Origin: Euglena gracilis
Taxonomy: Eukaryota
Reading direction: 5' to 3'
DNA length: 64,000 nucleotides
Assembly (NCBI GenBank): GCA_039621445.1
Contig: CP154954.1
Location: 47,719,847 to 47,783,846 of the forward strand
Every line of letters begins with the position of its first letter. The stretch's first letter is position 1. The notes under the pieces are model-generated. The model did no database searches and was not told the DNA's origin. It worked only from the letters and a program-made list of their open reading frames with translations. The translations under genes and the position numbers were made by a program. This document shows, one piece after another, positions 10,141 to 58,320 of this stretch.

Positions 10141-10939
10141 TCATGTGTTGTAGTGGGCATTCTTGATAAGAAAGCCGCTGAGTTTTGGGACCCACCATGG
10201 GCCGTTGTTCTTGCCTTGAGACTGGCTGGCCAGATAGAGGCTCCTCCACGTCCACGACGTTTGATTCCATAGATTCTGCCTTTGCCCAGGCTCTTCCCCT
10301 GCCACGGGGATGGGTATGAGCTGCCATAGCTCCTGTTGAGGGGCAGACTGCCCTTGCCTCCTTTTCTTCTCCAATGTCTCCAACTACGATATGGAGCGAT
10401 TGGGAGTAAGGGGAGCTTTACCTGCTCCATTGATGTTATGGACCTTCTGTCCAACTGCAAATCTGTTGAAGTGAATAAAACGTTGCTGGACTCCATCACA
10501 GCTCCCGGGATGCTCCTGCGCTTTCTCTCCCGCAGGAGTTGCACTTCTGTTTCAGCCGAATAGTAAAACAGTTGTTGACACAGCTGGTGATAAGACGTGT
10601 CCTCCTGCTGCAGCACAATGGGATGCAATGTGGCCACCATCCTCATGGCGTTCAGCATACGTTGTTGCACTCCCTTCATAAATTTGTCAACGATTGAACG
10701 ACCATCGGCTTTGTGATTGTTGTCTTCTGCCCTCTGTTTCATTCCAGAAAACACTGGTACGTCTTGCAAGACATGCCTCATGCCTAGTCTTTCTCCTTGC
10801 TGTGCCTTTTTGACACAGAGCGCCAGGTCTCCTGGCAGCTGCAGAGACGGTGCCTCCCAAGGCACCCGCTCTTCCTCCTCCGCCTCGTCGCCTTCTTCCT
10901 CTGTGTCCATGGCGTCGCCAGCGCCGCCGCTCCTCCTGG

Positions 10940-12874: not shown

Positions 12875-15800
12875 GTGGCGAGGCGCGTTCCTTACGCCGC
12901 TTCCCCGTTGAATTCATGCGCCCGGACGTCGGAGAGATGGAACGCTACATCCGCACATTTGTCCGATAAATCTGCCAGGGCCATGTCCACATTGGCCACC
13001 AAGACGAGGCTGTACAAGAAGCTGTTCAGGTAGTCCACGAAGTTTGCGCTGACCAATGCTATCCACGTCAGTCTTTGTATGGCTCTGGCGCATTTCGTCG
13101 AAGTCCATCCGCCACCATTCCACGCTTGTCCGGCTTGCAGCACGCCTTGAAGCTTCTCCGTTGATGTTGTCTTCAGCAAGTCGCGTACTTCACCGGGGTC
13201 CAGGAACCGACGTCCCCAGGCTTCGTTGTAGACGCTCTCGTCTGTAGATGACAAACTCTCGGATGTGATTGATGTCGACGTGATTGCTTGTAGCCCAAAA
13301 GGCGCTTAGGATCCGCCAACTCCGGCAACAAAAAGCAGCAAGAAGCACCGCGCCAAAGAACACACCATGAACATACAGCCGGTACAAAAAAGCAGGATCT
13401 CACCCAACCGAAGTGAGAAGCCCGAGTGGTCCACAGCCCCTCGGTTCAATAAGCTGATCTCTTTCTTCTGTCTGTGGCAAAATCCTCGGCCGCTCCGCTC
13501 GGCTGCTATCGCACAAAAAATGAACCGACTCCGGCCAATGTCGCCGGCGTCTTTTTCAGAAAGGCCAAAACATTAGAGAAGACGAACCCTCTCCCTCTCC
13601 TGTTCGATGGGACCCCGAAACTCCCTTTCTCGCTCTAAAAGTCGGCGTTTTAATCAGGATAATTAAGGAACGGGTGGCTTTTATTTCTTTTCTGAATGTT
13701 TGAAAAGACCCATCAGGGGTGTCTTTTAAGGCGTCGTTACTGTCGTTAGTGGAGAGGCTATGATGACCACACCGACTCCGGCAAAAAAGGCACTCAGCAG
13801 GGACTCTTAACTCAAAAGCACCGAATACATCCAAAAAATCCGCCAGTGAACAAGGAATGGTCTATACTGATCTTTGTGCTTCGTTTCCTTCAAAGTCTGT
13901 CCCGGCTTTGGTGCTTTTAATTCACCCGAGCTGATTCCTAAGTTTGACCTTCGACACCCAAAATAAAGCAACTTCAAATATCTTGTCAATTGGGAGAAGA
14001 AGAAGTCAATCATTCAAATTCAAATTGTCCAGAAAGAGACGCCGGCGTAGAACTATACAGCAGAAATTGTTGAAGTTTTGAACGAATTCAATGAAAGATG
14101 CAATTTGAAAAAAGAACAGCGCTGGAGCCCTTCACGAGGGAGCAGCCGAAGCATCTGGACAACCTGACGGAGCCGACCCGCTGTTGCGAACCGTGGCTTC
14201 TCCTTTCCCCAAAAGATTTCAAAAATAAAAAAAAACCCAAAGTGACGGCCACGAACTCTTGTGGACAATGGCCAGAAGACTCGTACTCCCTCGAGGAAAA
14301 CCGTCCAGGGAAAAAGGCATGGCCCCACAAGGGTAAAGTGCGTAGCCTGAGGTGTTCCCGTTAGGGCAGAAGCAACAGCCAGCTGGCCACCACGGCCGTT
14401 GGAGAGAAGAAATTTGGGGCCAACATTCCACAACACAGAGTGTGTTCAAGAGGGGCTATGGCAGCCAAAGCCGCGCAGGCCATGACGGCACCACGGGCCA
14501 TGACTGCACAGCCGACCGCGACGACACCTCCATTCACAAAGGTCGATGGAATAGTTTCAAAGGGGACCATCAGTGCCAAAAGGGCCCCACAAGCCATGCC
14601 AGGTGCAGAAACGGTCCAACACACAATCCCCATTCTTTCTCATTCAAACCACCATTCAGGGGCCAAGGGCAGAGTCCAAGAACCCCTCAAGCTGAGAGCG
14701 GGGTTGGCGGCCCAAAAGCCAATCAGGCCAGTTGGGCCTTTCGTGTCACTACTGGGGCCAGAAAATGCAGCAGGAAGACCCAACAAAACTGGCGGCGAAG
14801 AAGATGAAGGGCTGCCAGGGCTGTGCGTTTAAGTGGGCCCTCAAGCTACAGGAGTAAGATGGCGGGTTTCGAAGATGAGAAAAACCTCCCTACCTCGTGA
14901 CCATTCGGGCACCGCACTGCGAGATGGTGAGGTCCTGCTTTCCTTGCCGGCTGTTCTGTTCTGGTGTGTTTGTGTGTGCGCTGGGGGTGCTTCTTACTGC
15001 TTTTTGTTTCCGGAGTTGGCTGATTCCTAATTCTGCCCTTCGACCGAAAGGAGAAAGAGTTTCACTTCTACGAGTTCAAGTGGAATTATTTTACGAGGAC
15101 TACTACATTCACGAAGACCATCACTTTATCAACTGGTGGAGCGAACTTTTTTCGGACCTTCAACTTCCTGGAGGAAGAATTCAACTCTTCGAGTTCAACT
15201 GGAATTATTTCCAGAAACATTGCAAAGATCAACAACTGGACCTCCATGAAGAATGCATCTGAAAGAAAGTCAGACTGCCAAGGAGAACTTCAAAGAACTT
15301 CGAAGAAGGCATCTGAAGCTGGGGAAGGCAGGGGCTATGGCAGCCTTTCCAAAAATATCAGAAATACAAGGGATTCAAGTCATCATCAAGGCTATGGCAG
15401 CCATCATGGCTATGGCAGCCATCATCCAAAAGGACCTGGGGTCCAGAATCAAGGCTATGGAAGCCATCATCTAAGAGGGCAGTGGGCCCAGGGGCAAGGC
15501 TATGACAGCCAGTACCCCAGCCTGGAAAGATCCCATTGGGGAAAGGCATGTCCAACTTTCCCCCCAGGAATTTCAGACACAAACCCCCCAGGAGTAGCAA
15601 GCCACTGTCAAAAACAGGCCATGGTGGACTGTATGGCGAATCAAGAGGGACAGAGAAGAGACAAGAGAAGTCCTGGAGAGAAGGCCAATGGAGGAAAAGC
15701 AGGCCTGATGGCCCTGAAGGCAAATGGTGGCCAATACAATCAAGACCATCCACACCACGTCAGCCCTTGGGGGGGGGGGAGGCCCAAGATTGGCTCAGAC

Positions 15801-16019
15801 AGGCCCCCAGCTTTATATGTACCACCCAACTGCAGACACAGACCTTCCCCCATCATTCAGAAACAGGGGGAAAGCCTGTCTTTGGGGAGCCCTATGGCAG
15901 GGACAGCAGCAGCAGCCCCAGTGAGGGGGCAGCCAGAGGTGACCCCAGTGATGGGGCAACCAGGGGGAAGGACCCCAGCGATGGGGCCTGTGGAATCCCC
16001 AGACACATTACACCCAGGG

Positions 16020-17460
16020 GTGCCCCCCTACAAGGCCCTGCAGGCCAGCATACCCCATTGGGTAAGGGCAGGTGCCAGCAGAGAGGTATTAAACCTGATA
16101 AGGGAGGGAGTTATGGCAGATCCTCCCCTCCCCCCTCAGATGTCCTTAAAAGTTCCCTTCAAAAAACCCCAAGAAATAGTGACTGCCCGAAAAATTCTGA
16201 GAGAGTACGAATGTGCAGGAGCAACCAGGCAAATACCCCCAGAGGAGGCAAAACATTTTGTCCCTTATTTCATCATTTCCAAAAAAGAGGGGGAAAAGAC
16301 AAAGGAAAGACTAATTTCGGACTGTCGACAGTTAAATCACCATTTCACCACCCAGAAATTCAGACTGGAACACATGGGAAGCATCTTCCCATATTTGAGA
16401 AAGGGTTGGTTCTGTGGAAAAATAGATCTGAAAGAGGCTTATTTTCACCTAAAGCTGCACAACAGCCTGGAGAAACATGTTTGCATGCAAGTGGGGGGGG
16501 GGGGACGTGGCAGTTTCAGGCTGCATGCTTTGGCATCAGCAGCCTGCCACAAAAATTCATGACTCTCATGAGAATCTGGGAAAGAAAATGGAGAAAGGAG
16601 GGGAAAGTAGTTTTCATCTACCTGGACAACATTTTGCTCTTAGCCCCCAGCAAAAAGACAGCAGCCCAACATTTGGCAGAAGTGAAAAAAGATCTCCTAC
16701 TGGCAGGTTTCAGATTAAACCTCCCCAAATCCTGTTTGGAACCCACGCAGGAAATAAAGCATTTGGGCCAATGGATCAATTTGAAAAAAAGGCCAACTGG
16801 AAATTCCTCAGGAAAAACTGAAATCCTTAAGGAAGGAGCTAGGCAAAGTGCTCACAGCACAAAAAATGAGCTGCAGAAAACTCAGCTCTATTGTGGGACA
16901 GGTCAGAAGCTATTTAGTCTCCATGTCATTTCTCAGAATTCTGACAGATCAACTTTGCAAAATGGTGGATCTGCACACAACGTGGGGTTGTGACCACACC
17001 CTAACCATTCCCCAGGGAGTCAAGGATCAAATTGTGGAATTAAAGCATTTTTACAGCCAGGTGTTGGCAGGGCATTTCAATCCCAGGCCTCTCAAACACT
17101 CTTTTCGGACAGCAGCACCTGGCAATGGGGGGGGCTGGACAAAGATTCAGGCCAAAAGGTGCAAGATTTTTGGAGGGACTTACATGTCCTTCATATCAAT
17201 CAAAAAGAGTTGCAGGCTGCAGTGGAAACGGTAAAAGCACTAGCCAAACCAAAGCAAACAATTGTGCTTCATGTGGACAGCCAAGTGGCTGTAAGTTATC
17301 TAACAAAGTGGGGAGGCAAAAAGCCCTACCTAAACTCTATCTTAAAACCCCTGCTGTATCATTGCCAAGAAAAGCAAATCAATTTGCAGGTGGTTTGGGT
17401 TCCCACAAAGGAGCAATTGGCAGACTCCCTGACCAGGGAGCAAAAGGACCCAGGGGATTA
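16020..17460 (+). pseudogene. DIRS-B reverse transcriptase / RNase H
   Basis: PYFIISKK...ERLISDCRQLN, KIDLKEAYFH, FQAACFGISSLP, FIYLDNILL (YxDD changed to YLDN), FSDSS, HINQKELQAA, HVDSQVA, ADSLTR. Several frameshifts fall in G/A homopolymers. Confidence 0.9.
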
Positions 17461-17950
17461 TACCCTAAACCTAAACATCTTTCATCAAATTCTTCAATTT
17501 TTCAAAACGGACATCACCCCAGAGGTGGACATGTTTTGCACCCCCAGCAACAAAAAATTCCCCAAGTTTGTTTGTCGATACCCCCACCAAGGGGCTTTGC
17601 TGGTGAATGCCTTAAAGGCAGATTTGAGGAGCCTCCCCTCCAGTTTATGCAACCCCCCCCCCCCCTGGAGCATCATTCCCCAGTGGGTTCAGAGATTGAT
17701 GGTAAATCCAGACCTGCAATGTCTGTTGATTGTACCCCACTGGGTTTCGACATCATGGTGGCGCCAATTAATGTCAATCCGACAGCCAGGCAGCAGAGTT
17801 TTACTGGTACCCCCCCCCCAGTGGGGTCTGTTCACCAACTGCTGGGGGGAGGAGATGCCCCCCCCAAGGTGGAATTTGGCCTGCTTGATTGTGTCAGGCA
17901 AATATTACAATCCCAGGAAGTTTCGATGTCCAGTATCGACACTTACATAA
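17460..17950 (+). pseudogene. DIRS-B Dam-like N6-adenine methyltransferase domain fused to RNase H
   Basis: EVDMFCTPSNKKFPKF...VNAL...CNPPPPW (NPPW with an expanded C-run)...LIVPHWVSTSWW. Confidence 0.8.
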
Positions 17951-18748
17951 AAAAACTGGGAAATGTCAAGAGATATGACTCAGCATTCAGGGCTTTGGTG
18001 GGCCACTTGTTGCACAAAGGGGTGCCCCTGCAGGACTGCACAGTCCACAAGATGGCCGAGGCCATCCTTGATGTTGCTACCCACAGCCTCAACACTGCAC
18101 GAAATGCATATGCAGCAGTTTTATTACTCCCAGGGTTTGGGTCATTGAGGTTCTCCCCTCTTTTGTCTCCATTGAAAAGGAAATGGAATGCCAATGTCTG
18201 CAAGTATGTCCATTTTTGGGACCCCACTGATTTTCTAGACAACATCATCAGACAATCAAGACCCCTCTCAGAACTCTCTGTGAAAGAGCTCCGAAACAGA
18301 CTCATCATTTGTTGGAGGCTTTTGGCCCTCCACCGGGGGGTTGATCTAGCCAGGACACAGCGAAAAATCAGTTTCGTGGGAGGAAAATTTTTCATTTTAT
18401 TGCAAAGGAAAGGGTGGCAATTCCCAAGATGGGAGGAAGTTTTGAATTTGCCACACCCCCCCCTCATAAGCCCCTGGCATTTATTGAAAGAGTATGCGGA
18501 AAGGACAGCCCACATGGTTGGGCACAAAAATAATTTGTTGTGGTCTTTGGATGGTAAAAAACCTTTGACATCAGAAAGAGTGAATTCCCTTACCAGAGAA
18601 ATTCTGCATGAGGGGGGGTGGACACCACCCACTGGAAACCCCACAGCACCAGAGGGGCTGGGGTTTTATGGTGGAAAAATGCTGGTTTGCAAGTGGAAGA
18701 AGCCCAGCAATTGGGTCAATGAAAAAATTTTGGTGCCTTCCAAGCTCA
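17880..18748 (+). pseudogene. DIRS-B tyrosine recombinase, 3' truncated
   Basis: LALHRGVDLAR, then after a frameshift in the G-run near 18615, HWKPHSTRGAG...LGQ*KNFGAF. Similarity to DIRS-A ends just before the catalytic HY. Confidence 0.85.
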
Positions 18749-19509
18749 AGGGGCAAATGGGAAAAGAATTTTTTTTAAAAAAACTTTACGGTTGGTGAGG
18801 ACCACCTCTGACCTTTTCTGCTTCTCGGTCGGCTATCGGACTCCCACGACAGAGGAAGGGGGAGGAAGGGACCATGAGGGCGAAGCAAAAGAAGATCGTG
18901 AGGTCCTGCTTTCCTTGCCGGCTGTTCTGCTCTGGTGTGTTTGTGTGTGCGCTGGGGGTGCTTCGTTGTCTCGTCCACCCCTCGGGGGAGTCCGACTCCC
19001 TGGCCGGTTTTTTCCCCCAAGGAGTGGGCATGCACTTCGTGGCGCAGAAAATGGATAGTTTCGCAAATGTTGCAAATTCAAAAATTAATCACGAAGCTGC
19101 TCGCCACTCATTGCTTTGACTTGGGAGACTGCGGAAAAAAATGACACCCAACCCAACTCAAAATCTTTCGAGGCCCAAGAAAGCCGTGCAATTTGATTTT
19201 CCCCCACGTATTTCCTACACATTTTGGGCAGGGTATTTCTCTGTTTGCAGCGTGTGGGTTTGGTGGGAATGGGTACATGGCCAGATAAAGCATTTGAATG
19301 ATATGTGGGGGGGTGACATGCAATGTTGTGAACTATACCACAAATCAGGCAGAGGAGAGAGAAAATGACCGTCGCAAGCGTCAACATATTCCATGGGTCC
19401 ATGGGTCAGTGCTGATAAAAACGAAATCGATGCGTGGCATGGGCAACGATTGTGAGGTGCGATGTGGATCACAACGGCATCACCCCAAAAGCGCATGCTG
19501 ATCATTCGT

Positions 19510-20097: not shown

Positions 20098-23000
20098 TTA
20101 CAGCTGGAACTTGCTGGCCGCAGGGGAGGCCTTGGCGGGCAAGAAGAGCGGCGACATGGCGAGCTTGTTGGGGGCGAGGGACGATGTGATGAACTCGTAC
20201 GCCTCGGCCACGTCGTCCGTGAAGAGCAGGTCGTCCACGTCCTTCTGGGAGATGGTGCCAAGGTCCACCATCGCCTGCCAGTTGATGACCTGCACCAGGA
20301 AGAGGATTCGCCACCCCGCTCCCCCCGCCAGGCCACGACTTCCATACGCCACCTGTCTCGAACCGGGGGGGGGGGAGGCTGGTCCAGCCAAAACGCCGTC
20401 TCATGCGTGCATGCGTGCATGCGGTCCACCTTCTCCCAGTACTGTCGGCCAAACAGGACGATGGGGAGGTCCGGCCGCAGCTTGCCGGTCTGCTTCAGGG
20501 TGACGGCCTGCAGCCCAAGGCCCGCCCAAGTGCAACCACACCGAGGGGAATATCCGCCCAGGAAACCTTGAACCCAACCCGCTGCCTTTTGGCAGAACTG
20601 CGCCTGTAACGCGCCCCGAACGGCGCCTGTCTTCCGGATTGGAATCGCGACGACCATAGACAGGCCGGGGGGGGAACGAGAACGGAATTTGGAAGGCCTT
20701 TTAGACCCACGTAATGCACAACGGGTTCGCGCTTGCGATTGCCTTTTGGCATAACAACGACGCGGTGAGCGGGCCCCGCTTCCAATACTTAACAACCACC
20801 ACTATCCTGATTGCCCCCCCCCAATTTGTCATAATTTTCTTCTCTTCTTCTTCAAAAAAAAAACTGCATTCAAATGAACAGAAAAGCACCTGCAGAGCAG
20901 AAATGCACTGTTCAGTCCAACTATGGTAGCATTGTCAATCAGATGCATTCGTCGAAATGTCACAGGCACCCCCGGCAGGGTAGCTTTGCATTGCCGGCCA
21001 CCCCTGCACACCTCGAAGAGCTCGTCGAAGGTGCCGAAGCCGCCCGGGAAGACCACGATACAGTGGGCCTGGTACACCATCCAGAACTTGCGCGTGAAGA
21101 AGTAGTGGAACTCGAAGGCCAGCTCGGGGGTGACGTACTGGTTGGGGGCAGGGGCGGCCAGGGTTCGTCCGCCCTGTCCACTGCCGGAGGGGGGGTGGGG
21201 GGGCTTGGCCGACAGGGGAACTGGGCAACTGGGCAACCATCTAAAAATGTGGTGGTACAATAAAGAAAAACCGATTGCCAGAAACTCACCAAATTCTACA
21301 ACCCAAAACTCATACGATGCGCTTCGAATGCTTGCTGGTGTACGTTGTATGAGACCCCCTACCCTCCCCCGAGTCAAAATCCTCACCAGCCACGACAAAA
21401 CCTGGTAACCTGGTGACCTGGTAATCCGGTAACCATGGTTCCCCTTGGTTGTCCATGTCTTGTCTTGGGGTCCAAACTCATTCTTAAGCTATCTGTACTT
21501 ATCCATTTCAAGATAAGCACAAATTCCTGGTCTGTTACAGCGGGTCAGCGGGTGGTCATTCATGGGAGGTGGGGCGACCGTTGGTAGGGTTCAACTGATG
21601 GGAGGGTTCCTGTCCAAAATTGCAGATATGAAAACTCATTTTCCCACAAATTTCCTCATCGATCAATCCAAAATCATGACTGACTGACAGAAACTGACAG
21701 AAACTGACAACAAACATGTCCGGTGAATATGTTTGATGAATGCCAGGGTTTCTGATTTTATGACTTCCAAAAAACCTGCCTCTTGTCAATAAAACACTTC
21801 CAATACTTGATACCACCGGTGCTTCCCTTTGAGTCGTTGACCCAACCTTTACAACGCGGACGTATGGTTTGACTGCGTCCCACCTGGCCCTCAACTGGTG
21901 TTTGGCTTCAGCGACTGGATACGTTGGGGCCCAGCAGGACAGTGGTGGGGCTGCCCAGGCTGGCCCTGGGGGGAGCCCTTCTCGAAGGGCAGCGAGATGC
22001 CCATCCCCATCGTCTTGGCCCCGGGCACCTGTGCCCCGAGATGGTGGCGCGAGAGGAAGCCATGCCGGGGGGGGGGGCGTTGGACCAGGCCGTTGCTCGA
22101 GGACCCGGGGAGGGGTCTGCTGGCCAGGAACTGGGACCAGCTGCAGAAAATCCTCTGGAAAGACACCCTCTCATGGGGGGGAGTGGAATTTTTTTTTCTG
22201 ATGCAAGTCAAAAAAGGGAGCTTTATCAAACATTATTTTTATAATTTTGTTTCGAACTTGCTGCAGTCCAACCCGGCCTCCGGGGGTTCAGTAAATAATA
22301 ATCAGAGGCCTGGGGTGGAAGCCAGGGAGTATTATTTCAAGGAGAAAAATGTCAAACTCTTTAAAGGATGTTTAAGGTACTTTTTTTCCCTTTTAAATTC
22401 TTTAAGGCCTTTTAAATTTCTTTAAAGTCCTGTTTTCTAAGGTCGCACTAAAAGTTCTTTAAGGCTTTAAAGCACTTTGGCCAAATTCTTTAAAAAAGTT
22501 CTTAAAATTACCTGAAAATGGTGCCCGGTGGATGCCTGAGGAAATGTCTGGGGGACAGTGAGCCTCGTCCATTCAGGAAGTTTGAGATCAATGTCAAAGA
22601 ATGGTATTTGAAAAAGAGGGCCCTTTATTCTGCCTGTGTGCAGGTGGGGGGGAAATGCAACTTGGCCCTTCAAATTATGCAAGTCAAAAAAATGCAAAAA
22701 AATGCAAAAAAATGCAAAAAAATGCAACTTGCATAAAACCCCTGAGAAAAGGCTGGAATATAACAGAGTTTTGCTGCCTAAAATCAGTAAACATGTGACA
22801 ATGCCGGTGTACCTGTCAATGATTCACAAAGAAGACCTCCTGGAAAGCAATGGCAAGCACTGAGACCCAAAAGACCCCAGGCAACTGCAGAGAGACCAGA
22901 GACAAAACGTGACATATGGCGACCAACCACAAAATCACAAAATCGCAAAACCAGGGCAAAACATTTTATGCAAAAAAATGCAAAAAAATGCAAAAAAATG

Positions 23001-25737
23001 CAAACATATGGCGACCAACTACAAAAAAAATTTTCAGGGCAAAATATTTTATGCAAAAAATGCAAAAAAAGCAAAAAAAATGCAAATTTCGGAAAACCTG
23101 ATTATGCAAAAAATGCAAATTATGCAAGTTGCATATTCCCCCCCCTGCTGTGTGCAAGATCGTCATCGAATCCCATACCGACGCCGCTCCTTGGTTGGCC
23201 GCCTCCATGACGCCTGGGCCGCCTCCTGTACACACCACGATGTGCTGTGGGTACGCCGGCTCTGCCGTGGCATCCGCGGCGTGGGCTGGGGGATACATGT
23301 GCGATGCGATACGATGCGATGCGATACAATGCAATGTGAAGCGATGTGGTGTGTGTGTTGAATTGCAGGAGTACACACGACACAAGACTTTTTTCCACCC
23401 AACGCTCAAATGCGAAGATGATTCCTGCCTGATGATCGCTGGTGGAGGCAGACGGGGGGATATACCTTTCCCGTTCCCCCTGGGAAGGTCCTCGGTGAGG
23501 TACCGCGTGTAGTGCTGCATCGAGCCGCTGTCATGGTTCAGCCCCTGGACGCACAGCCCCTTCCTGACGTCCTACGAGAGGGGAACATATTGCTGTATTT
23601 ATGAATCAAATCTCGTCACCCAAGTGCTCACTTTCTGGGCGGCTTACCCCATATAACCAGTCAACTTCAAAGGCAATGAACACCCTCACAAACAAACTTG
23701 TGGCGTGGCTTTGATGGGCTTGGGCTCATGGCGGTGATTCCACACACCTCTGACATGGTCCACTCCGTCAGCCGCTTCGCAAGCTCCCTTGCCTTGGTGC
23801 AGTAATCGCACATCCAGACCGACCGCCGCAGGCGGCTCAGCTTTGCCTGCAGCCGCGCCAATTGTGCCTGGTCTGCAGTTGCTGCAATCTCCTGCGAGCC
23901 GCCCATGGGAGGAGGGCGATTGGCTTTTGTCGTTTGCGATTTGAAAATTATTGATTGTGTGCCGTCATTGACCATATCATTTGATGTGAAGCTGTTGGCT
24001 GTCTCTGAAAATGACAAATGCTCCCGAACACATCACCTTCAGGTGAACTCGGTGCAAAAAAATGGTAAAAAAGTTCTACTGAAAATTTGCCAACTTCAGA
24101 AATATAAATCATGAAACTTCTGTCCTTGTGGGACATTGATAGCCAAAAAAAAATAACATGCATGGCCGCCAACACAACGGGATCAATGGGATGAGCGGGA
24201 GGGCAGCACAATGATAAGACACAAATCCATTAAGAGAACAAAATTATAACTGTTTTATATAATGCACAAGAATCAACACATAAATGAATAACAATTAAAC
24301 CTAATGTGAACGAAAAATAAATGCGTTTATTTTGTTAAAAATAGGTCCCTCGTTGTGCATGCCAACGGATAAATTCTTCAATTCCTCCCTCCCAGGTACA
24401 AGGTTTACAAACACCATGTGATGGTGGCGTTGTGATCTTAGTAGTTCCTGATCTGATATCGGTGGCAGAGATGCCTTTTTTGGTGTTGGCATTTTTCTTG
24501 ATTTTCATGAACACAGTGCTGGGTGGCCGGAGGCAATGCAAGGCAGTGGCAACGGAGAGGAGGGATTGACCTCCTCACAGTTCTTCACCGCCTTCGCATG
24601 GTCCTCATGGGAGAGCGATCGGGCGGAGCCAAAGATGAGCAGGGTTCCCTGCAAACCCCAGGCGCAACTCCAACGCCAACAAGCACACGGAGGAGTTCTT
24701 GGGTGGCGTCTGGGTTGTTGGTGTGGGGGGGGGGCAACGGTTCTGTCTTTCCGCCAATCCAGGATCACCAACGCAAACCTAAAAGGCCCGCAACAGCGAG
24801 CAAAAGCTCACACTCATAAATAATGGGGGTATGGGCGAAATATTTCGCCCAAAAATGAAGGGGAACACAATGGTAACAGAATTGAAGCCCAGATTGGCTT
24901 TGCATCTGCAAATCTGCTGCACATGCTACATGGGTGACATATGTATGTGCAAATTAAGAAGGAGCCGGTGGGAATTTGCACGCCTAGTCGATTGGCAAGA
25001 AATGGCCATGCCAAGCCACCTTGTTCTCATTATTTCTCACCAAAATCCCTTATCCAGACCAAGGTTCGTTGTAAATCAGGAGGAGGATTTCAGAGGGGGG
25101 ATGTGCAGATGGTTCAAAAATTAAAACACATATGTAGGGGAAGATTTCAAATCAACAAAACAGGTAAACTATAAAGCGCAGGCAGGGCGCGTCCAAGCGC
25201 CACGCAGACTCATCATGCAGAGCCAAAATCAATGCGGGCACAAAATCATCCAAACGTGCGGCACTTCCCACTTACACTTCGCACGGATGCACACAACAAC
25301 ATGGCCACACTTGGATGCAGTGCTCCCGGAGGCGGCGGCGGGGCTCCTCGAACTCGCACATGATGCGGATGGACCGGGCATGCCGGCTGCTGAGGAAGTC
25401 GAGGTTCTTGTACGCCTTGATGGTGGGCGTGAACTTTGTCTCCTCCTGGGGGAGCCAGGTGGCAAATCGGTTGGAGGTCATGGAGCAGTGCTTGGCCACA
25501 GGGTGGCTCAGGGGGGGGGGTTGTGGACGAAGGGCAGTGTCGGGATACCCAACCACCCACAACCACAAACCGTCCACCCAATCACCCACCCAAACCCATC
25601 CCCCCACTCAGTCCCCCCCCCCCCCAGCTACCACCCACCTACCCAGCCACCCACCCACCCACCAACCCACCCACACACGCACACACCTTGGCATCGTATG
25701 GGCAGTGGTCCGTCTTCTGCCGCTTCGGGTCAGACAT
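20098..25737 (-). CDS. LOG-family (Lonely Guy / putative lysine decarboxylase-like) nucleotide monophosphate phosphoribohydrolase, 10 exons, ~374 aa
   Basis: Exons 25737-25687, 25490-25311, 24648-24571, 23891-23748, 23571-23466, 23285-23179, 22028-21972, 21143-21012, 20507-20430, 20289-20098 join in frame. Motifs IFGSAR, TGGGPGVMEAANQGA, GISLPFE, FHYFFTRK, PGGFGTFDE. Eight GT-AG introns and one non-conventional intron (21144-21971). Confidence 0.92.
22641..23147. mobile_element. MITE with 7-bp TSD (P-like termini), inside a LOG intron
   Basis: Termini CAGGTGGGGGGAAATGCAACTTG and CAAGTTGCATATTCCCCCCCCTG; perfect 7-bp duplication CTGTGTG; internal AAATGCAAAA tandem repeats. Confidence 0.8.
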
Positions 25738-26051: not shown

Positions 26052-26292
26052 TATAAATGGCGGGGGTGAACTTGTGGCCCCCCCTACACCCTTATTTGAA
26101 GGAGTAGGGTTAGGTGCGCACATGCTAATTTGCGCTAATTGGCTATGTTGCGCTAATTGGCTATGTTGCGCAACATGGCTACGTTGCGCAACGTAGCCAG
26201 GTAGCGCAAATTAGCATGTGCGCACCTAACCCTACTCCTTCAAATAAGGGGGGTGTAGGGGGGGGGGCCACAAGTTCACCCCCGCCATATAA
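26052..26292. repeat. Long near-perfect palindrome (foldback/MITE-like)
   Basis: Arms of ~95 bp (GGCGGGGGTGAACTTGTGG...TGCTAATTTGCGCTA and its reverse complement) around a short internally repeated spacer. Confidence 0.85.
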
Positions 26293-29587: not shown

Positions 29588-30454
29588 CAGGGTTTCCCAC
29601 AAATTCTAGGGACCCTCAATTCTGCTTCGTGATTATTCGTGATTATTCGTGATTATTCGTGCTACCCAAAAATCGCCCGGTTTTTTTTTTACTGAACCTG
29701 CCCAGAAAACCAATGCACACTCCTCATCCAATTGTGTATCACCTCCAATGGCAGAAACATAAAAAACGAAACTCTATGACCACCGAAATTGGACAACAAT
29801 ATTGAACATAAAGCAAAGCTGCAGACAGAAAGTGACAATGACAATAACAAGTGAAAATGACGTTGTTGCTGACGCGTGTGGTGTTGCATTGTGCAGTGTT
29901 TTGTTGCACGGTGTGCTGTCCATGGGCAGAAAGGGTCAGATGACATGTTGAACAAAGAAGTGCTGCTCAACATCACCATTGCAGAGCATCATGACAGCGG
30001 CTTGATGCAATGTCTTCCACACACTTCGGTTTGAAAGCTTGGAACATTGCCCAACCCACTAACACAATCGCAAAAGTCAAAAATGAAACAAAATGCACCA
30101 CATCTCCATGCCTCTGGTTTCCATAACGTCGCGGAACTATGAGGTGAAATGAAGCAAAGAGTTGAAACAATAGAGTTGGGGATGGCACTGAGCAGCACAC
30201 TTCTGGGCCGTCGTCATATTTCCACCCCATTTCCGTGTTCGTTTCCCTTTTAAAGAGAATTGCTCCTTGATTGAGGCGTCATTCTCAGATGAAGACATTC
30301 TGCAGTGAGAACAAAAACTGTTCCAGGTCGTTTGTGGAAATTCGTGATTATTCATGATTATTCGTGATTATTCTTGATTTTGGAAAATCCCCAAATTCGT
30401 GCTGGTTCGTGATTATTCGTGATTATTCGTGGCACGAATTTGTGGGAAACCCTG
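29588..30454. mobile_element. Non-autonomous DNA transposon with 19-bp perfect TIRs
   Basis: TIR CAGGGTTTCCCACAAATTC at both ends; flanks TTAGAAG/TTAGAAA (7 bp, one mismatch); tandem TTCGTGATTA subterminal repeats near both ends. Confidence 0.85.
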
Positions 30455-32073: not shown

Positions 32074-35000
32074 TCACTTGGCCACGTACCCCGCAGCCTC
32101 CTCCAGGTCAGCCCTGGCCACAGAGGCAGGTGCCGGTGGGCAATGGGCGATCTGGGTGAACTGTATTTTTGCAAAGTTCCATCCGGCCAATCCACATTGC
32201 TCAGCGGCCTTCAAGGCGGAAGAAAGAAAACTCAAAACAGGCCGGCAAACAAACCGGCCACAAAATTGAAAAGTACCACCCCGTGTTTGCTTGTTTTCCT
32301 TGGCCTTTTCATAAACTTCTCCGTGGGCTTTTCTACTTCTTCTTTTGCTAGGTTTCGTCGTGGGATGTCAAACCAAACTCTGGTCTTGCAGGGCTCAGCC
32401 TTGTTGGCTTCCATTTGGGGTTTGCCACCAGACGAGAGGCTGAATTATTTGCCTTCAAGCTGTGGCGTCACACAGCAAGGCTGACGGACGCACAAAGGTG
32501 GTAGAAAAAACACATGCACACCCCCTACAACAAATAGGCAACCCAGACCCCCCCCCCCACGAAAGTTTGTTCTGTTCCCCGCTTGGCCACCCCGACCAAC
32601 TCCACAGCTCCATCCGTCCGACGACGGACGACCCCGGCGGCCGGCCCCTGCCCGGTGGTGGGGCCGAAGAGGGACGGCAGCCCGTCGGCGCGGGCCTCGT
32701 AGTACGTGCCGAGGGCGGAGGACCTGCGGTGGCTGCGGTCGAGGGCGAAGTCCCCGTCGTCGTCCAGGAGACCCATTTCGCGGGCCCGCAGCTTGGACCG
32801 GCCCCACGCCCCAGCGCGGGCCGCCGGGGGGCAGCAACCTCCCGGCACACCCCCGGCGACCTCTGCGGAACGGGGGGGGGGTGGGGGAGAGGCGACGGGG
32901 CGACGCGGGACACCGTTCCAGACACCGTTCCACACACAGTTCGGGACACCGTTCAGGACATGGTTCGAAACACGGTTCAGGACACCGTTCCGCAATGTGC
33001 CGGGAGGTTGCTGCCCCCCCCCCCCCCCCGGGGGGGCGCACGGGAATGGGATTGTTGGTTGCCCTTCTTCTGGTTGGCGGCGGCTGACTTGGAAGGTGCG
33101 GTGAGCCACACCTGGACAAAGCAACCTCCAACGTGTCGAAGCTTGAGCAGCACATCAAATCTGATGACAGCTTCTCAATATGGGAAGAGCTGAAGCTCAA
33201 CCAAACGAAGATTTCAGGGCGGGTGATCGTCTGCCATCAATGGAAACGACAACCCATCCCCAACCAAATTTGGTTCTAAATCCTTTGGAAATTGGGTTCC
33301 ACTTGAGAAATGGATGGTCCCTTTGTGTTTCTCAACCTTGAAACTGTTTCGGAGTCCTCGAGATCTGCCGGCGACAATGCTGAGGCGTGGCTGTGTGTAC
33401 ACCTGCTTGACGAGGGGGATCCGCAGCCCATCCGCCCCAAAAGCCGGGCACAGGGGGCGTTGGACTCCCCCCACCACGCACCTCCCCAGCGGTCAAGAGA
33501 GGGGGAGGTCTGATGGACAAAATGAAGTTTCTCTGCCCACACCCACCTGAACATCTTTTCGGCCTGGAAAAAAATAATTTTCCCGAGGCTGGATTATCTT
33601 CACCGAGAGAAATATGTCGTTGCACATCACCGATCGCCGTCCCCTGGGGGGGGCCCTGCCCGCCGAGGTCGTACACGGAGGGCAGGCCCGGGATGCGGGC
33701 CAACACCTCCACGCTGTCGTCGAGGGCGCAGGTGGGGCTGTGGAAGAGGAACGCGTTGCGCGTCTCCAGCAGGTAGCCCGTCGACGCCCACCCGATGCCG
33801 TTGTATGCCCCGAACGGCCCCGGCGGCTGTCCCCCTCTGGTGGTTGGGTGGTGCCCCCCGCTCTCCTGGACCTCCCCCCCCCCGCCCAAGGGGGGTATTG
33901 GGGCCATACAATTTTTTACCGACCCCCGGGGGGGGAGGGAGGGGGGGGGTCACTCCACTTTTTGAAAAACCAGTCAGTCACTTTTCTTTGGGAAGCCAGT
34001 CAGTCACTACCCCCCCTGGGGGGGGTCGGCCACTCAGGAAAACCAGCCACTTTCCAGTCACTTTAGGCCATTTTAGGCCAAAAAAATTTTCCCGGCGCCT
34101 TCGGCGCCGGGGTCACTCAAGCCACTTTTGCCCACCCCTGGCCGACCCCCCCCCCCCAGGGGGGGAGGGGGTCCGGGAACGGACCTGGTTTTGGTCCGGG
34201 CCCAAAACCAGTCAGTCACTCTGAAAAAACCAGTCAGTCACCCCCCCAGGGGGTGGGACAGTGCTTAAAAAATTGTCTGATTGGGGCTAAGGCCGCCGCA
34301 CAGCACTCCGGTGGTGGTCTTCCCCACAAGGATAGCGGGGCCGCGGTTGTCGACCAACCGGTGGCATCAGAGCCCCCCGCCGCCGTCAGGTGCCGGTGGG
34401 GGTTAGGAATGGCCGCATCCCATGCCACCTGACCTTGTGGGAGGCTGGGGCCACAGTAATGAAAGCCACACAGATGAGAGGGCTGGCAAACTGCGGGGAG
34501 GTCTGGGCGGAAGGCGGCGGCGGACCAGCCATCACGGGTCGCGTCGTACGCGAGGGCGAGGGGCAGGGACTCGAGCCGCGTGCCGGGCATCACCAGACTT
34601 TCATTTAGTGTGCCGCGGCGAAGTTTGCCGCCGCACAAAAATCTTTTCCATGGCGCACGCGGCGCAGAAAAAATTTCCAGCGGCGCATTAAATGCAAGTC
34701 TGGGCAGCACCGTGCGCCGCAGCGCCGCTGTCTCCGCGTCGTCCTCCGGCACTGCCACCGCCACCCCGCCCTCCGGCTCCTCCTCGTACCGTGGCGGCTT
34801 GAAGAGGTCGAAGAGGCTCGCCCGCAGCGGCGCGACGCGGGAGCGGTGGGAACTCAGGGCCTGGGCAGCAGAATCACCCCCCTACCCATCTCCTCGCCGA
34901 TTCTGAAGCTGCAGGAGGTGGAGGTGCAATCCAATAGGCGCGCGGCTATGCTGACTGTCTGGGGGCAGGGGGCTAAATGGCGGAAAAGCAACCTCGTTGG

Positions 35001-36760
35001 ACGGTGCAAGCACCCAAACAAAAAACTGTTGCGCGCTCTGCCGGTGCCGTTGCGTGCGAACGTCTTCACGACTTCCCCAGCAGCTCACGGTAATGCGCGC
35101 GGTGGCGACCCACACCAAGCCACCATCAACCACCGAGCGGCACACTACATACAACTACTGCATACTACGCCCACAAATGGGAAAGAGGCGGCGCTGCAAA
35201 GTGCGAGGGAACGGGCATCGGACCTCCAAAGCCTCTCCTGCCCGGGATGCGTCGCCGGCCAGGGAGAGGCACACCACTGGGTCCGGCTGACGGGTTCGTC
35301 GCCGGCGGCGGAGAAAGGCGGTGGTGAGCGCTGTCAGCAGGAACGCCGCCAGGGAGACCGCCGGCGTTCGGGAGGCGGGCGGTGCGGCCGCCGGGTGTTC
35401 GGCAAGGGCGGGCGTGGAGGAGGCCGCCGGAGGGGGCTGGGCCCAGACCATGCCTCGAGCAGCCGGAAACGCCGCCGGTCCGGCCACGGCGGTACGACTC
35501 CAGAGGGCCCTCGCTCGTTGAGACCGCCTGTTGCGTCGAGGTAGGGCCTGTCCGGACCGCGGCCGGGGCCCCCGCCCTCCGGACTTCCCCATGGGCCCCA
35601 TGCTGCCCTTCAGCGCCCTCCGGTGGGACAAAAGTCGATCCATCACCTCCAATCTTGGTCCGTCAGTCAATAATGACCCTCCTTTGCCCGGAGCAAGGGC
35701 GGGGGATGGGGGCCCCAGTGCCGGGCCCAAACATAGGTGGACCGGGTAACGCCCCACCCTGCCATCTCCCTGTGTAAGACCCCGGTCAACCCTTTGAATC
35801 GGTGGCTCCCAATCCATTGGAGGGGGCCATATTTGTTCCGGGGGTCGGGTTGTTTGTGGCCTTTCCTCTGGGGGAGTCTTGCCTGGTCCCTTTTATTTGC
35901 AATTTCGCTGATAGTCGGCAGGGAGGAGAATTTTTTTGGGGGGGACCTTGGCGGGGGCCGAATGCAACGCAGTGCCCCGGCGACCGGCATGGGAAAGACG
36001 CCCTCCCCTGCCGGCAGCAAGGATCCCGACAAACGGGGCGGGAATGGCGGGAGTGGCGGGGCGGGAGGCAACGTGGGACGGCGCTGGCAAGGGATAGCGT
36101 AATTAATTTGGGCATGTTTGTTCAAAGGTAAATGCCGGTGCTTAAATGTCGAAGAGGATGCAAAAAGCACCAAAAACGGCAAAGCACACACACACACACA
36201 CACACACAGGCAGGAAAGGAAGGTTCCTAACTTGGTGCCTCCTTCAAGCACCTTGGGGGGACAAGGGGGAAAAACGAGTGTCTGGGGGGGGGGACTTCGG
36301 TTGGCCTCTCTCATGCCCGCTTGCATGTAGCCCCAAAGAGTCCCAAATCAGGCTGTTTTTTTTTTACCAACCCCGGGGGGAGGAGGGTCCGGGGTGTCTA
36401 TGAGTGCCTGCCCAGGCAGGCACTACCCCCCCCCCGGGGTCGGATTTCAGGCCCAGGCACAATCCTTTGAAAAAAGGCCATTTTTGGCTCCCCAGCACCA
36501 GGCGCCGGGGTCTGTGCCAGGGCACTTTTGGCCGTGTGCCTCCCCCCCCCCCCGGGGTCAGATCGGGAGTGCCTTGGAGTGACTGCCCAGGCAGGCCCCC
36601 CCCCCCCCCCCGGGGTGGAGTCGGCACCCGACTAAAATACGGCCTGGTCCCAGTCGGCCCAGAAATAGAAAATGGGCTGGCCCTTGGGCCGGAGGAAATG
36701 GCCGGTGGACGGGATGGCCGGCAGGAGGAGGCAGAGGGCCCTGACAGCGATCCCCGGCAT
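32074..36760 (-). CDS. TLDc-domain protein (plant/algal plastid type) with euglenid class I-like presequence; 5' exons uncertain
   Basis: Exons give LAYDATRDGWSAAAFHRLVDNRGPAILVGKT, AYNGIGW...AFLF, GGQGP-AFGADGLRIPL, SSALGTYYEARADGLPSLFG, RADLEEAAGYVAK*. Upstream hydrophobic segment AVSLAAFLLTALTTAFL followed by RRRRR (~35300-35360). Possible signal peptide MPGIAVRALCLLL at 36760. Confidence 0.8.
33905..34279. mobile_element. MITE, GTGACTGACTGG family, hAT-like
   Basis: Termini CATACAATTTTTTA and TAAAAAATTGTCTG; perfect 8-bp TSD ATTGGGGC; reverse-orientation relative of 4593-4951. Confidence 0.85.
36349..36646. mobile_element. MITE, CAGGCTG family
   Basis: Termini CAGGCTGTTTTTT and TAAAATACGGCCTG; flanks GTCCCAAAT/GTCCCAGT; homologous to 48166-48275. 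Confidence 0.7.
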
Positions 36761-38843: not shown

Positions 38844-41209
38844 CTACACAAACGGCGGAGCAAACTTCAGGCCGGAGGTCCGCACCTGCTCCGTGATGCC
38901 CAGCGTGTCCCACCGCCGGTTGGCCTCCCACCCGCCGAGCCCCCCCTCCACCTCCGCCCGAACCCGGGCCCCCTGAGGGCAGGCCCCGGCGGAGCCCGTC
39001 CCGGCGGGCCGCCGCCCCCCCTTCCCCCCTTCCCTCCCCGGCGCGGGGCCGCATTGAACTTGGGCGCTGAGTGCTGAGCCGCTGACGGTCCGCCATCGGA
39101 TTGGGTGGGGCGTTGGGTTTTGGGTGGTGATGAGTGGTGAGGATGATGATGAGGGAGGAATGGGGCAGATGTGGCTGTTTTAAAACAGGGGGAGGGAGGA
39201 GGGGTTCCCCACCCACCCACTCCCTGGGGAACACCAGGGAGACCCACTTTGCTCCAACGGAGTCACCAAACTTGAAAAAACCTCTGGAATGGAGGGCGAA
39301 ATGGAGAGCCAATCCATATGCATTACCATGGAGGTGAGGCCAAACAGGAAAGAAGGAACTGTGAGGCTTGAATTGGGAAATGGGGCCAAATTGGGCCCGG
39401 CACTCTGCGCCAGCGACGGGGGAGGATCCCCCCCTGGCGCACGGGGCCAACTTCCAGTGCCGGAGCCTGTGTGTGGGTCTCTGGACAGGAAGTCGAACCA
39501 CTGGGCCAACTTCGGGCATCCTGCAGCGGAGGGGGTTCAGAGCTTGGTGGGCTGGGATGTCCACGCCAGTGACAAATGAAACCTGCGAGCTGCTGTCCTG
39601 CATTCCTCTTTTTATCAGAGGAGTGCCTTAAACTTTGTCCACCGAACATACTTCAGGTTGTCTTGCAAGGGGCTGCCTCATAACAATTTCTGCTTTCCTT
39701 TGCCTTCCTCGCATTCCATGCACTCTTAATCTGGTTGGAGGTGAGATGCTCAATGCGGTAACCTCCCTTCCGTGATTTAAGACACTTGATAAAAGATCTC
39801 TTCACTGTCAGGCAGATCCTAAATAAGACATCTGGCATGCCATCCCTGAAATTTTAAAAGCTTTGCATACTCCGAAGGCTTTCTAATGAACACCTGGCCA
39901 AATTCTTTCATTTCAGGAAAACGCCTTGATCACAATCATCCTGAGACGCTGGTTCGCATGCCGTTGTCAGGGTCAAGGTTGCCACTGCACCGAGCTGGTG
40001 GCAAGGAAGGCCTTCCTCACAAGACACCCCCTCCCTTTTGATGGGCGGCTCAGCACCGCGCACACCATCGAAGGCCGAGGCCCAGCCGAAATGGTGCGGC
40101 AGGATGAAGTTTAGGAACACCGCCGTGGGGAAGAGGGCGGCGTCCGCGGCGGTGGGCTCGGAGCCGGCCAGGTACGGCGCCGCCCTGGCCCGGCCCTCAA
40201 TGACGCGCAGCTGCTGCCCCCGGGCCGGTGGAGGGGGGGCGTTGGCCATCCCAGACAGAATGGGGATCGGTGTGGGTTGCGACAGCGTGATGCACGCGTG
40301 ACGTGTGTGACGGACTGCCGCCTGTGGGGAGTATGGCAACCCCCAAAGGGGGGGGGACTCCGACCTGGAGAACGGCAATGCTCCAGCCAATGCGGTTCAG
40401 GCCGGGCTTGGGGATGGGGCTGCCCCCAAGGGCCCGGCCGGTGGATCTGCTGCAGCCCCGCACGCCGCTCCTCCGCCCCCATCGCGCGGTACATCGCGCC
40501 CTGCACCGGCGCCAGGTACAGGTCGGGGGCAGAGGCCTCGTCTTTGGGACCCCCGGGTCAGTCCGGCGGGGCGCCAACCAGACATGCACTTAGTGTGTTC
40601 ACAAAGAAGCTGGCGAACACACTTTTTTTGGTGAGCACAGGCGAACATAAAAAAATTGGTGGACACAGAGGAATACAATAAAATTTTGGTTAACACAAAA
40701 AAGATTTGACAAAATATGCATACATATGCAAAAAATGTGTGAAAAAATATGCCAATTATGGAAAAACTTTGAACTTTTGACCCTAAATTTGAGCTGGCCA
40801 GCCCTTTTATGATCCATTTTTGGCCCACTTTTGCACCCCCGAAGCCAAAAACAATGCCACCGCCCAGCCTTCTTTCGGGTGGTTGCAAAATAATAAATAA
40901 AACTCGTCGATGGGGGGGAGGAAAGAGAATCTGAGGCTGGAAAAAAGCTGCTGGCTGAAAAAAGGCGCCATGACCAAACCATTGCTTACCGACGCCCGGG
41001 GGGGGGGGTCAATCGATCTGGCCACTTGGCCAAAAATGTCAAAAAAAATCAAACGATTTTGGTCAAAAATCCAAACTATTTTCCGGCGCCTTCGGCGCCG
41101 GGTGGTCACTTTCGGCCATTTCTGGCCAACCCCGGGGGGAGGGGTCTGGAACCAGTCAGTCACTCCCCCCCCGGGGGGGGGGAGGTGGGGTCGGACATAC
41201 CTTAAGCTT

Positions 41210-41266
<57 letters not shown>

Positions 41267-43306
41267 CATACTAAAGCTTAAATATATACTTATATATACT
41301 TAACCTTAGCCTTATGGTATGGCCCTGACCCACACCCTAGGGTGAAATTTAAGGTTCGGTCAAAATATCATTGGTGAGGATAATCAGTGTGGGTTAGCAC
41401 AAAAAAGACATGCCACCAACAACCATCAAAAAAACCTCCGGGCGTGGTACCGCGTCAAGAGCGCCACCTCCGCTCGCTCCAGCGGGGTCGCCCCCAACAG
41501 TCCCGCCCAACGAACGTTTCCTCCGCTGATGGCCGGGAAAAGCACTGCGGGGTGGTTTGTCCTCGGACCGGTGACCAGGGCGGGGGCGGAGACGATCCCT
41601 GGCCAACGTTTCTGGACCCCTATGGCGGGTGGTACGCCCCCAAACAGTGCCAGGACGGTACACTCCAAGCCGCACCATGTTGGTGTGTTCATCCGGCCAT
41701 TTGAGTGATTCCCCGGCCCTCCCGCTTCCCCCTCTTCCCATTAAAATCCTGCAACAGCAGCTCCACCGAGGAGAATTGGCACCTTTGGAGATGGGTGACT
41801 ACCAAACCAAGCGTTCCTTGTCGTGGCCCGACCTCAGGAAAGCTGTCGAGGAGGAATTGGGATATTACCTGCAGAACGGACGTGGCGATGACGCATTTTC
41901 AAACCAATGACTTGCCACTGCACATTTTTTTGTTTTCCCAATGTTTTATTAATGGGCAGTTTGGATGCAAAGGTTACGCACGTGCACACAAATTTGTCTG
42001 AGATATGCATGTGTGTGTTATGCCATTTCCACACATGTTGCTTGTGACCTCAAAGCTGACAAATAATTCAGCTCTTGATGGGGCTGAAAAATAGATTTTC
42101 CAAATTTTTATTTGCAATTTTGTTTGCAGGGAAGACACAAAACCAATTACTCACAGAATTTGTACGTGAAAGCAGATATACCTCATCTTTCAGAACCAGC
42201 ACAAACGGTTTTCAGTTGCAGGTTCACTTTCGTCGGCACACCTCGCTTTCTGGCAGGGCACTGCCGTCAGGCAAGACGAGGGACGGCATCTTGCCCTGCG
42301 GGTTGATGGCGAGGTACTCTGGGCTCTTCAGGCCGCCGGCCTCCGCCGGGGACTTAATGACGACCCGGTCCTCGAGCCCCTTCCAGTAGATGACGAGTCT
42401 GCAGGGGGGGGGATGTGTGCGCAGGAAACGAGCACAAAAAATCTGTTTTGCACCACCACAAAACAAGAGGTGCACTCCCAATAGCTGAGCACGAACGCGC
42501 AAACTGGACACATGCGCGAACAGGGGAGGGAAGCTAAGACTGCTCAGCAGCTGTCTGGAGAAGGAATCAGGGTTTCCTTCGGAACCCCTCGGTGGGTCCC
42601 GCAGAGACCGATTTGATGCGCATTCCTTCCAGGAGGTTTCTAGGCCGGAGGGGACACTAACCTGGAGGGGGTCCAGCCAGCCAGCACCTTTTTTTTCCAG
42701 CCAGCTGCTCCCAGACGACCCCCCTTTCCCCAACTCTCAGCAGACCCCCCCCCCCGGCTGGATCGGAAACAGAGGGTCAAAAATGTCCAAAAAATGGTAG
42801 GTCAGGTTCTGGGAGATCATTATAGCAGTTCCAAGCATGTGCTACGACAGTGAATTCTCAGACACATGCGAAGGGGTCCTAACTGGGTAGGATTGGCCCG
42901 CCCCCCCCTCTTCCGACTCTGCCATTTTGCCGGGGTCCAAAACTCGGTCAAAAATCGATTTTTCGAAAATATCTACGGACACACCGGACGCGGGCCCCGT
43001 GGTTGGACACGGGCGTGTCGTACAGCGTGGCCGGGCTGGCAGCGCTCAGGGTCATCGCCGGCCGCGTCTCGACGGCCCAGGGCCGAGGCTGAGGGAGGGC
43101 AGTGTGCCCAGAAGGGGTAACTGCCTTGCCTGCAGACCCCAGGGCAGTGTATGGATGTGTGTGTTGTGTGTGTTGTGTGCGTGCGTGTGTGCGTGCGTGC
43201 GTGCATGTGTGTTGTGTGTGTGTGTGGGTGTGTGTGTGTTGTGTGTGTGTGGGTGTGTGTGTTGTGTGTGTGTGTGTGTTTGTGTGTGTGTGTGGGTGTG
43301 GGTGTG

Positions 43307-46097: not shown

Positions 46098-58320
<12,223 letters not shown>

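Follow-up and report, generated by a model that had tools for sequence, protein, structure and literature searches.

Eight-nucleotide flank repeats at nonconventional introns of Euglena gracilis are consistent with the footprint of a transposon

The origin of the nonconventional introns of euglenids, and the agent that removes them, have been open since the 1990s; these introns were reportedly the subject of work by Tessier in 1995. A stretch of 64,000 nucleotides from Euglena gracilis (GenBank assembly GCA_039621445.1, contig CP154954.1, positions 47,719,847 to 47,783,846 of the forward strand; hereafter the window, numbered from its first letter) raises the question in a concrete form. A sequence-only reading of the window had picked out eight intron intervals, the clearest at 34589–34705 (the focal intron), and had proposed that they have the geometry of MITEs (miniature inverted-repeat transposable elements) that duplicate 8 bp of their target, making the window a candidate transposon-to-intron system. 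What do the sequences at the ends of these introns say about how they arose? Our analysis supports the view that each intron has direct repeats of its own, with a fixed length of eight, abutting CAG and CTG, as a target-site duplication would leave.

All eight intervals read NNN-CAG...CTG-NNNNN on the minus strand, seven with CAG/CTG and one (40525–41443) with CGG/CTG, and the first exon base downstream is a purine in every case. None has GT/GC-AG borders at the cut that this pattern implies, which bears out the geometry originally claimed. With G-U pairs allowed, the ends pair at 6–8 of 9 positions in all eight, and at 8 of 9 in the focal intron. Nomura et al. (2025; PMC12501133, cited here, like the other papers, for its passages on this topic) sequenced Euglena agilis, where 71.8% of introns are nonconventional, and defined by knock-in into the GSL2 gene of E. 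gracilis the signature N3-CDG...CH'G-N5-6/R, the slash marking the exon border. In that work the 5' spacer is strictly 3 nt and the 3' spacer 5 nt, with 6 tolerated; CAG/CTG, the downstream purine, and pairing after CAG and before CTG are all required; and fully synthetic introns built to the code are spliced. The 3/5 cutting rule is experimentally established in E. gracilis by these experiments (PMC12501133). Judged by sequence, our eight intervals are members of this known class, each with all the sequence features of the published code, and they lack what a spliceosomal introner requires, namely GT/GC-AG borders with one splice site drawn from the duplication.

The 8-mers that abut CAG and CTG are identical at 7, 6, 6, 5, 5, 5, 4 and 4 positions, or 42 of 64, which reproduces exactly the values first listed for them. 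In a cross-intron permutation in which every left flank was set against right flanks taken from different introns, so that position-specific junction preferences were preserved, the baseline was 2.71 of 8 and only 6 of 100,000 permutations reached 42; the flank similarity is therefore specific to each intron and not a shared consensus. Local decoys, that is, 168 other code-compliant CAG/CTG pairs no more than 36 nt from the true ends and with the same local composition, averaged 2.33 of 8 (0.29 per position), and none of 200,000 one-per-locus draws from them reached 42 (maximum 35). When the offset n was scanned from 1 to 14, z was 6.6 for n = 8; the two neighbouring offsets had only 1.9 (n = 7) and 1.1 (n = 9), and none of the rest exceeded 3.1, the values of up to 3.1 at n = 3–5 being due to G/C runs that add identity in a few introns. 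The comparison with matched decoys and with other offsets that had been suggested as a check thus gives, within the window, a peak at offset 8 only. As a control for bias in the choice of intervals, we ranked code-compliant, frame-compatible alternatives by end-pairing alone, with the flanks ignored; the listed pair came out best in seven of the eight and in a near-tie in the eighth (32116–32653). The flank signal is real, and statistically clear for a sample of this size.

The focal intron is the clearest single case. It begins GCCCAG and ends GGTGAT, and its arms are complementary at 20 of 23 positions, as had been stated along with its flank identity of 7/8, a value that none of the 168 local decoys attained. 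Beyond CAG the inverted repeat matches at 17 of 20 positions, joint top among 42,715 CAG...CTG pairs, and 20 block shuffles reached no more than 15. Read in frame, the interval has a third-codon-position G+C (GC3) of 0.45 over 38 codons, compared with 0.86 (58 codons) and 0.92 (26 codons) in the flanking exons, and its predicted RNA fold closes the ends (-61.2 kcal/mol, z -4.17, none of 200 shuffles as good). The GC3 trough, the stable end-closing fold and full compliance with the code together favour the predicted removal of this intron from the mRNA. Because the two repeat copies share identical stretches, junctions from -1 to +4 nt around this cut are equivalent, meaning that RNA reads could not place the cut more finely.

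The explanation that we favour, and regard as probable on balance, is that these are ordinary E. gracilis nonconventional introns whose ends bear the footprint of the insertion of a terminal-inverted-repeat DNA element with an 8-bp target duplication. An element with inverted CAG...CTG ends would insert into coding sequence and duplicate 8 bp; the element proper would run from CAG to CTG, and the eight bases on either side would be the two copies of the duplication. The inverted ends would then pair in the pre-mRNA, and a non-spliceosomal machinery would make its two cuts 3 nt ahead of CAG and 5 nt beyond CTG. Excision would take the element together with exactly one 8-nt copy, so that the pre-insertion sequence and its reading frame would be regained, and since the ends are inverted repeats, the scheme holds in either orientation of the element. 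More tentatively, and with somewhat less than even confidence, we suggest that nonconventional splicing in euglenids could act on RNA as a 'precise excision' device matched to a single class of DNA transposon: the ruler of this device, 3 + 5, would equal the 8-bp duplication of CAG-ended (hAT-like) elements, insertions would be erased in either orientation, and this tolerance would have allowed such elements to make up most introns (71.8% in E. agilis).

Several observations weigh against this explanation. The sequence-only reading had linked the introns to the free MITEs of the window through a shared duplication length of eight, and this link did not hold. When inverted repeats bounded by perfect repeats were sought, 26059–26286 was the sole clean case outside low-complexity DNA, and that element ends in GG; its GG ends and 8-bp duplication fit the signature of Merlin transposons. 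The free elements with CAG...CTG ends are in a 7-nt register in both cases, not an 8-nt one: the flanks of 29588–30454, whose subterminal 10-mer repeats are Ac/Ds-like, match at 6 of 7 positions for n = 7 and 4 of 8 for n = 8, and those of 60039–60471, which has CAGGGTTT...AAACCCTG ends in common with it, at 6 of 7 and 2 of 8. An 8-bp reading of the flanks of 29588–30454, which needs one substitution and one deletion, was dropped because 60039–60471 shows the same 7-nt register. We know of no superfamily that accounts for this register.

Nor did a family emerge. BLAST within the 64-kb window finds no second copy of the focal element, only the element itself; intron termini match no other locus there, and no intron belongs to a repeat family within it; and two pattern scans of metagenome contigs for the focal arms gave 0 hits, so that the expected membership of introns in a multi-copy MITE family was not borne out in these searches. 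The arms of different introns have only CAG-R-S in common (5.24 of 17 positions, against a null of 4.30). The 18 arm starts read CAG in 17 and CGG in one, with a purine at position 4 in 17 of 18 and G at position 5 in 9 of 18. A shared family of ends among the introns was considered and rejected: the best pair agrees at 10 of 17 positions, where chance alone should yield about 0.6 pairs of this quality. Pfam showed no DNA transposase domain in the 30 open reading frames (ORFs) scanned, the long ORFs at 9–18 kb being retroelement reverse transcriptase and RNase H.

Other points against concern the introns themselves. The sample is eight introns from one window of 64 kb, and a transcript-derived protein backs only one of them (21144–21971). 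The two weakest, at 4/8, are individually unremarkable, and in 21144–21971 a C-run gives an identity of 5/5 at n = 5. The focal element is in frame and without stops. Word-index protein searches, at near and at longer lengths, found no transcript of the gene with the focal intron; a full HMMER search gave one homologue only (P0123, 133 aa, JGI; 46% identity), and its alignment score does not tell the two states of the focal intron apart, being 159 with the intron removed against 162, plus three gaps, with it retained.

The proposed hAT link and the proposed age series fared no better. hAT elements prefer targets whose second base is T and whose seventh is A; judged by eye, the upstream flank copies have T at position 2 in 3/8 and A at position 7 in 0/8, so that this preference is not seen and any hAT membership of the intron elements is putative. 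The idea that graded decay of the duplications forms an age series is weak: flank identity correlates with arm identity at rho 0.35 (p 0.40, n = 8) and with intron length at rho -0.72 (p 0.046, n = 8). What stands of the transposon-to-intron reading is the 8-nt flank register, with a 3/5 cut that removes the element and one repeat; what falls is the tie to the free MITEs of the window.

Three other explanations have to be set beside it. The first is that staggered double-strand breaks, followed by fill-in repair, made the 8-nt repeats, neither a transposase nor a MITE having played a part, and that the ends pair because splicing demands it. It has a precedent: a strain-specific, recently gained nonconventional intron in gapC of E. 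agilis has eight-nucleotide direct repeats at its junctions, for which double-strand-break repair was suggested (PMC4770533). That no multi-copy family turned up in the searches, and no transposase among the ORFs scanned, would also suit it, as would the short inverted repeats of the seven introns other than the focal one, in which 7–10 of the first 12 nt are complementary, no longer than the pairing that splicing requires. Break repair would, however, leave repeats of variable length, whereas the signal here is confined to a single offset; the focal 23-nt inverted repeat exceeds the 12-nt stretch tested for splicing (PMC12501133); and free CAG-ended inverted-repeat elements with subterminal repeats are present in the same window. 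We consider this origin unlikely.

The second explanation, which we hold to be quite improbable, has no duplication at all: the similarity would come from G/C-rich, low-complexity exons, from pyrimidine–purine preferences at both junctions and from the choice of introns. Some of the signal does have such a flavour, in that G/C runs raise identity to about 0.5 at n = 1–5 (z up to 3.1) and position 5 of the repeat is C in 5/8 introns; moreover, seven of the eight introns rest on prediction, and the minus strand of the window offers 11,455 code-compliant decoy pairs. Among GC-rich decoys from across the window, 0.8% have at least 7/8 identity and 21% at least 4/8, and because of this last figure (P = 0.21) the two 4/8 introns carry no weight alone. 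An attempt to predict additional nonconventional introns de novo, with the code, open frames and GC3 as criteria, was swamped by false candidates, thousands in some versions and dozens per junction in others, and these were kept as decoys only. Against this explanation stand the permutation that preserves position-specific preferences, the composition-preserving local decoys, the flank-blind ranking, and the drop in z at offsets 7 and 9, all described above. A third, in which excised circular introns (N3 + element + N5) reverse-splice at spacer-like sites and are then copied into DNA, with the flank similarity reflecting target choice, is highly improbable, for although full-length intron circles are reported (PMC11282704) and reverse-transcriptase ORFs of retroelements lie in the window, no known mechanism chooses targets by spacer similarity instead of complementarity, and why free DNA elements have ends of this kind would be left unexplained.

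The support for the seven other introns is listed in Table 1. GC3 points to a frame that continues across the junction in seven of the eight introns, being at least 0.85 in one frame on both sides; the exception is 38975–39472. Removing 34363–34508 raises the P0123 alignment score from 123 to 162 and gives a gap-free DGWSAAAF/HRLVDNRG across the junction (slash). For 21144–21971, only three slid solutions reproduce the transcript-derived protein P0002; the interval as listed is precisely one of the three and conforms to the code. The unspliced frame at 20832–21488 on the minus strand, part of intron 21144–21971 included, has 94% identity to a Logan-derived ORF (P0001, 194 aa), from which it follows that the same intron is present in a second allele, paralogue or strain. 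The candidate at 40525–41443 contains nested repeats and has GST_N and GST_C exons on either side; PDB searches to bridge this junction gave no usable match. No transcript or homologue was found for 51550–51755. The interval 32116–32653 ties in total pairs with 32122–32653 (flank identity 5/8), with one fewer Watson–Crick pair.

Table 1 Introns, elements and retroelement domains in the window, with positions counted from its first letter
Feature	Positions	Strand	Description	Support or remarks
Focal nonconventional intron	34589–34705	-	117 nt; GCC-CAG...CTG-GTGAT, next exon base G	fits published sequence code
Focal element proper	34594–34702		109 bp; CAG...CTG	23-nt terminal inverted repeats 34594–34616 / 34680–34702
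Flank repeat copy	34586–34593		GGCATCAC (+ strand)	7/8 identical to 34703–34710
Flank repeat copy	34703–34710		GGCAGCAC (+ strand)	7/8 identical to 34586–34593
Nonconventional intron	34363–34508	-	flank identity 5/8	best-paired of 2 alternatives
Nonconventional intron, LOG/TIGR00730 gene	21144–21971	-	flank identity 4/8	transcript-derived protein P0002
Nonconventional intron candidate	51550–51755	-	flank identity 6/8	best-paired of 10; GC3 0.95 and 0.95, one frame
Nonconventional intron candidate	62968–63278	-	flank identity 6/8	best-paired of 8; GC3 0.95 and 0.90
Nonconventional intron candidate, GST-like gene	40525–41443	-	CGG...CTG; flank identity 5/8	best-paired of 7; GC3 0.90 and 1.00
Nonconventional intron candidate	38975–39472	-	flank identity 5/8	weakest coding support; best-paired of 2; GC3 0.75 and 0.95
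Nonconventional intron candidate	32116–32653	-	flank identity 4/8	GC3 1.00 upstream; downstream 13 codons then stop
Free MITE	26059–26286		228 bp; palindromic, ends GGCG...CGCC, perfect 8-bp duplication ATATAAAT	inverted-repeat scan
Free non-exonic element	29588–30454		867 bp; perfect 19-bp inverted repeat starting CAGGG, subterminal TTCGTGATTA repeats	
Second free element	60039–60471		433 bp; CAGGGTTT...AAACCCTG ends	16/20 inverted repeat
RVT_1	9387–11144	-		Pfam on ORFs
RVT_1	15506–16990	+		Pfam on ORFs
RNase H	16994–17947	+		Pfam on ORFs

The gene that contains 21144–21971 is the best documented in the window. The EukProt protein EG_transcript_14579 (P0002, 355 aa, from the E. gracilis transcriptome) aligns by tblastn at ~100% identity to ten minus-strand exons from 25737 to 20101, with a single D/E difference, so the interval 20101–25737 on the minus strand holds a complete ten-exon gene of the LOG/TIGR00730 family that matches this transcript protein. 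The window, a GC-rich eukaryotic sequence, is accordingly nuclear DNA of E. gracilis or of a very close strain. We enumerated, junction by junction, every splice position that reproduces P0002: seven of the nine introns fit GT-AG (six by this enumeration, the seventh by eye), one is odd and one nonconventional, and 21144–21971 thus coexists with seven GT-AG introns in a single gene. The odd intron, 23274–23465, starts with GT and, according to how it is slid, ends with GG, CG or GC, and may thus belong to the 'intermediate' type. Third-codon G+C is 0.88 in verified exons, and overall G+C is 0.49 in introns.

Two further minus-strand intervals lie close to the focal intron. Upstream of the focal gene, 35439–35553 is a code-compliant CAG...CTG pair (element 35444–35550) with ends paired at 9 of 12 positions and a flank identity of 5/8, and may be another nonconventional intron. 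The interval 33816–34301 may be the intron that comes next in the TLDc-like gene. Taking it out would give ...TTGV/LFGAYNGIGW, a stretch that we take to resemble the TLDc core; the flank identity of this candidate is 5/8, its end pairing only 5/9, and several alternatives exist.

From 20000 to 64000 the minus strand carries every exon detected by the third-codon G+C score, and the three genes identified there (LOG, TLDc-like and GST-like) are all on that strand; Pfam applied to single-exon ORFs returned fragments only (LOG, GST). A long trinucleotide run at 53600–53850, which reads as poly-Leu, poly-Gln or poly-Asn by frame, is wrongly scored as coding by GC3. Retroelement remains occupy 6900–19000 on both strands, and a 680-bp direct repeat (10940–11614 and 12192–12872) has an identity of 95.7%. 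A composite repeat family, built of CCAGTCAGTCAC units with C-run/G-run palindromes, occurs at 4620–4953, 33903–34257, 62331–62434 and 40974–41133, with copies within introns of the TLDc-like and GST-like genes.

If the two spacers are the halves of an 8-bp duplication, the question of origin reduces to a simple genome-wide one, namely whether flank identity peaks at offset 8 and whether this peak fades as introns age. The 3 + 5 rule would gain a reason, since with any other sum an insertion would not be silent; those looking for the splicing enzyme could concentrate on a factor that measures from a paired transposon end; and a non-spliceosomal case would join the growing list of introns made by transposons. 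The window yields a single clean specimen and a statistical signal that is small but clear, not proof.

The idea itself is not new. A MITE-like origin was proposed for nonconventional introns by Milanowski et al. in 2014 (PMC3935182); the recently gained gapC intron with its 8-nt repeats was described by Milanowski et al. in 2016 (PMC4770533); a 2024 review calls CAG/CTG a terminal inverted repeat, speaks of 'TSD-like' repeats (TSD, target-site duplication) at the junctions, and records that nonconventional introns are released as full-length circles (PMC11282704); and Nomura et al. name MITE-like elements as a possible source of introns (PMC12501133). All three components, namely the derivation from MITEs, the 'TSD-like' repeats and a newly acquired intron with an 8-nt repeat, have therefore been published before, and the present result largely restates a published hypothesis, adding to it a precise and testable geometry. 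Our search of full-text literature, whose coverage did not extend to supplements, found no text that presents the spacers of 3 and 5 nt as two parts of a single 8-bp duplication next to CAG/CTG, and no named superfamily.

Compared with what is described for euglenid nonconventional introns, the eight intervals show every feature: CAG at +4 to +6, CTG at -8 to -6, paired ends, no GT-AG, a purine opening the next exon and, in the LOG gene, coexistence with GT-AG introns. The difference is one of interpretation. In the relevant passages of PMC3935182, PMC4770533 and PMC12501133 the 3 + 5 spacers are a splicing rule and the direct repeats a nuisance, rather than parts of one 8-bp duplication; PMC12501133 finds short direct repeats at the junctions of 84.4% of introns and sets such 'slidable' introns aside. 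The papers on a MITE origin see signs of a transposon, as we do, in terminal inverted repeats and in 'TSD-like' junction repeats (PMC3935182, PMC11282704), but their passages on this topic give no repeat length, register test or superfamily, whereas here the register is measured and peaks at 8 only. The focal element has two features of a MITE, a terminal inverted repeat matching at 20 of 23 positions and a flank repeat of fixed length matching at 7 of 8. The transposon origin of the introns is inferred, as is any link to a superfamily.

Among known transposons, Merlin families are present in E. gracilis, with GG ends and an 8–9-bp duplication (PMC8101967), and thus provide DNA transposons of this species that make 8-bp duplications, a description that the free MITE 26059–26286 fits. 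Their ends are GG...CC and not the CAG...CTG of the intron elements, a Merlin feature that the introns lack; because of this, Merlin is not the source of the introns, and Merlin-like MITEs are probably why free MITEs with 8-bp duplications looked supportive. hAT elements such as maize Ac/Ds make an 8-bp target duplication and have a 5' end of C/TAGGG (PMC3260210). The likeness lies in the duplication length and may extend to the CAG-R-S ends of the introns and to the CAGGG end and subterminal repeats of the free element 29588–30454; the difference lies in the lack of a transposase in the 30 ORFs, the unmatched target preference and the 7-nt register of the free CAG-ended elements.

A parallel in outcome is offered by the introners known from Micromonas and Aureococcus (Huff 2016, cited after PMC11282704), in which a short DNA transposon that has inverted repeats and a target duplication turns into an intron when it inserts, and splicing removes the element and one copy. 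Those introns are spliceosomal and draw one splice site from a 3-nt duplication, whereas the introns described here have no GT-AG and are cut at a distance measured from the paired CAG/CTG.

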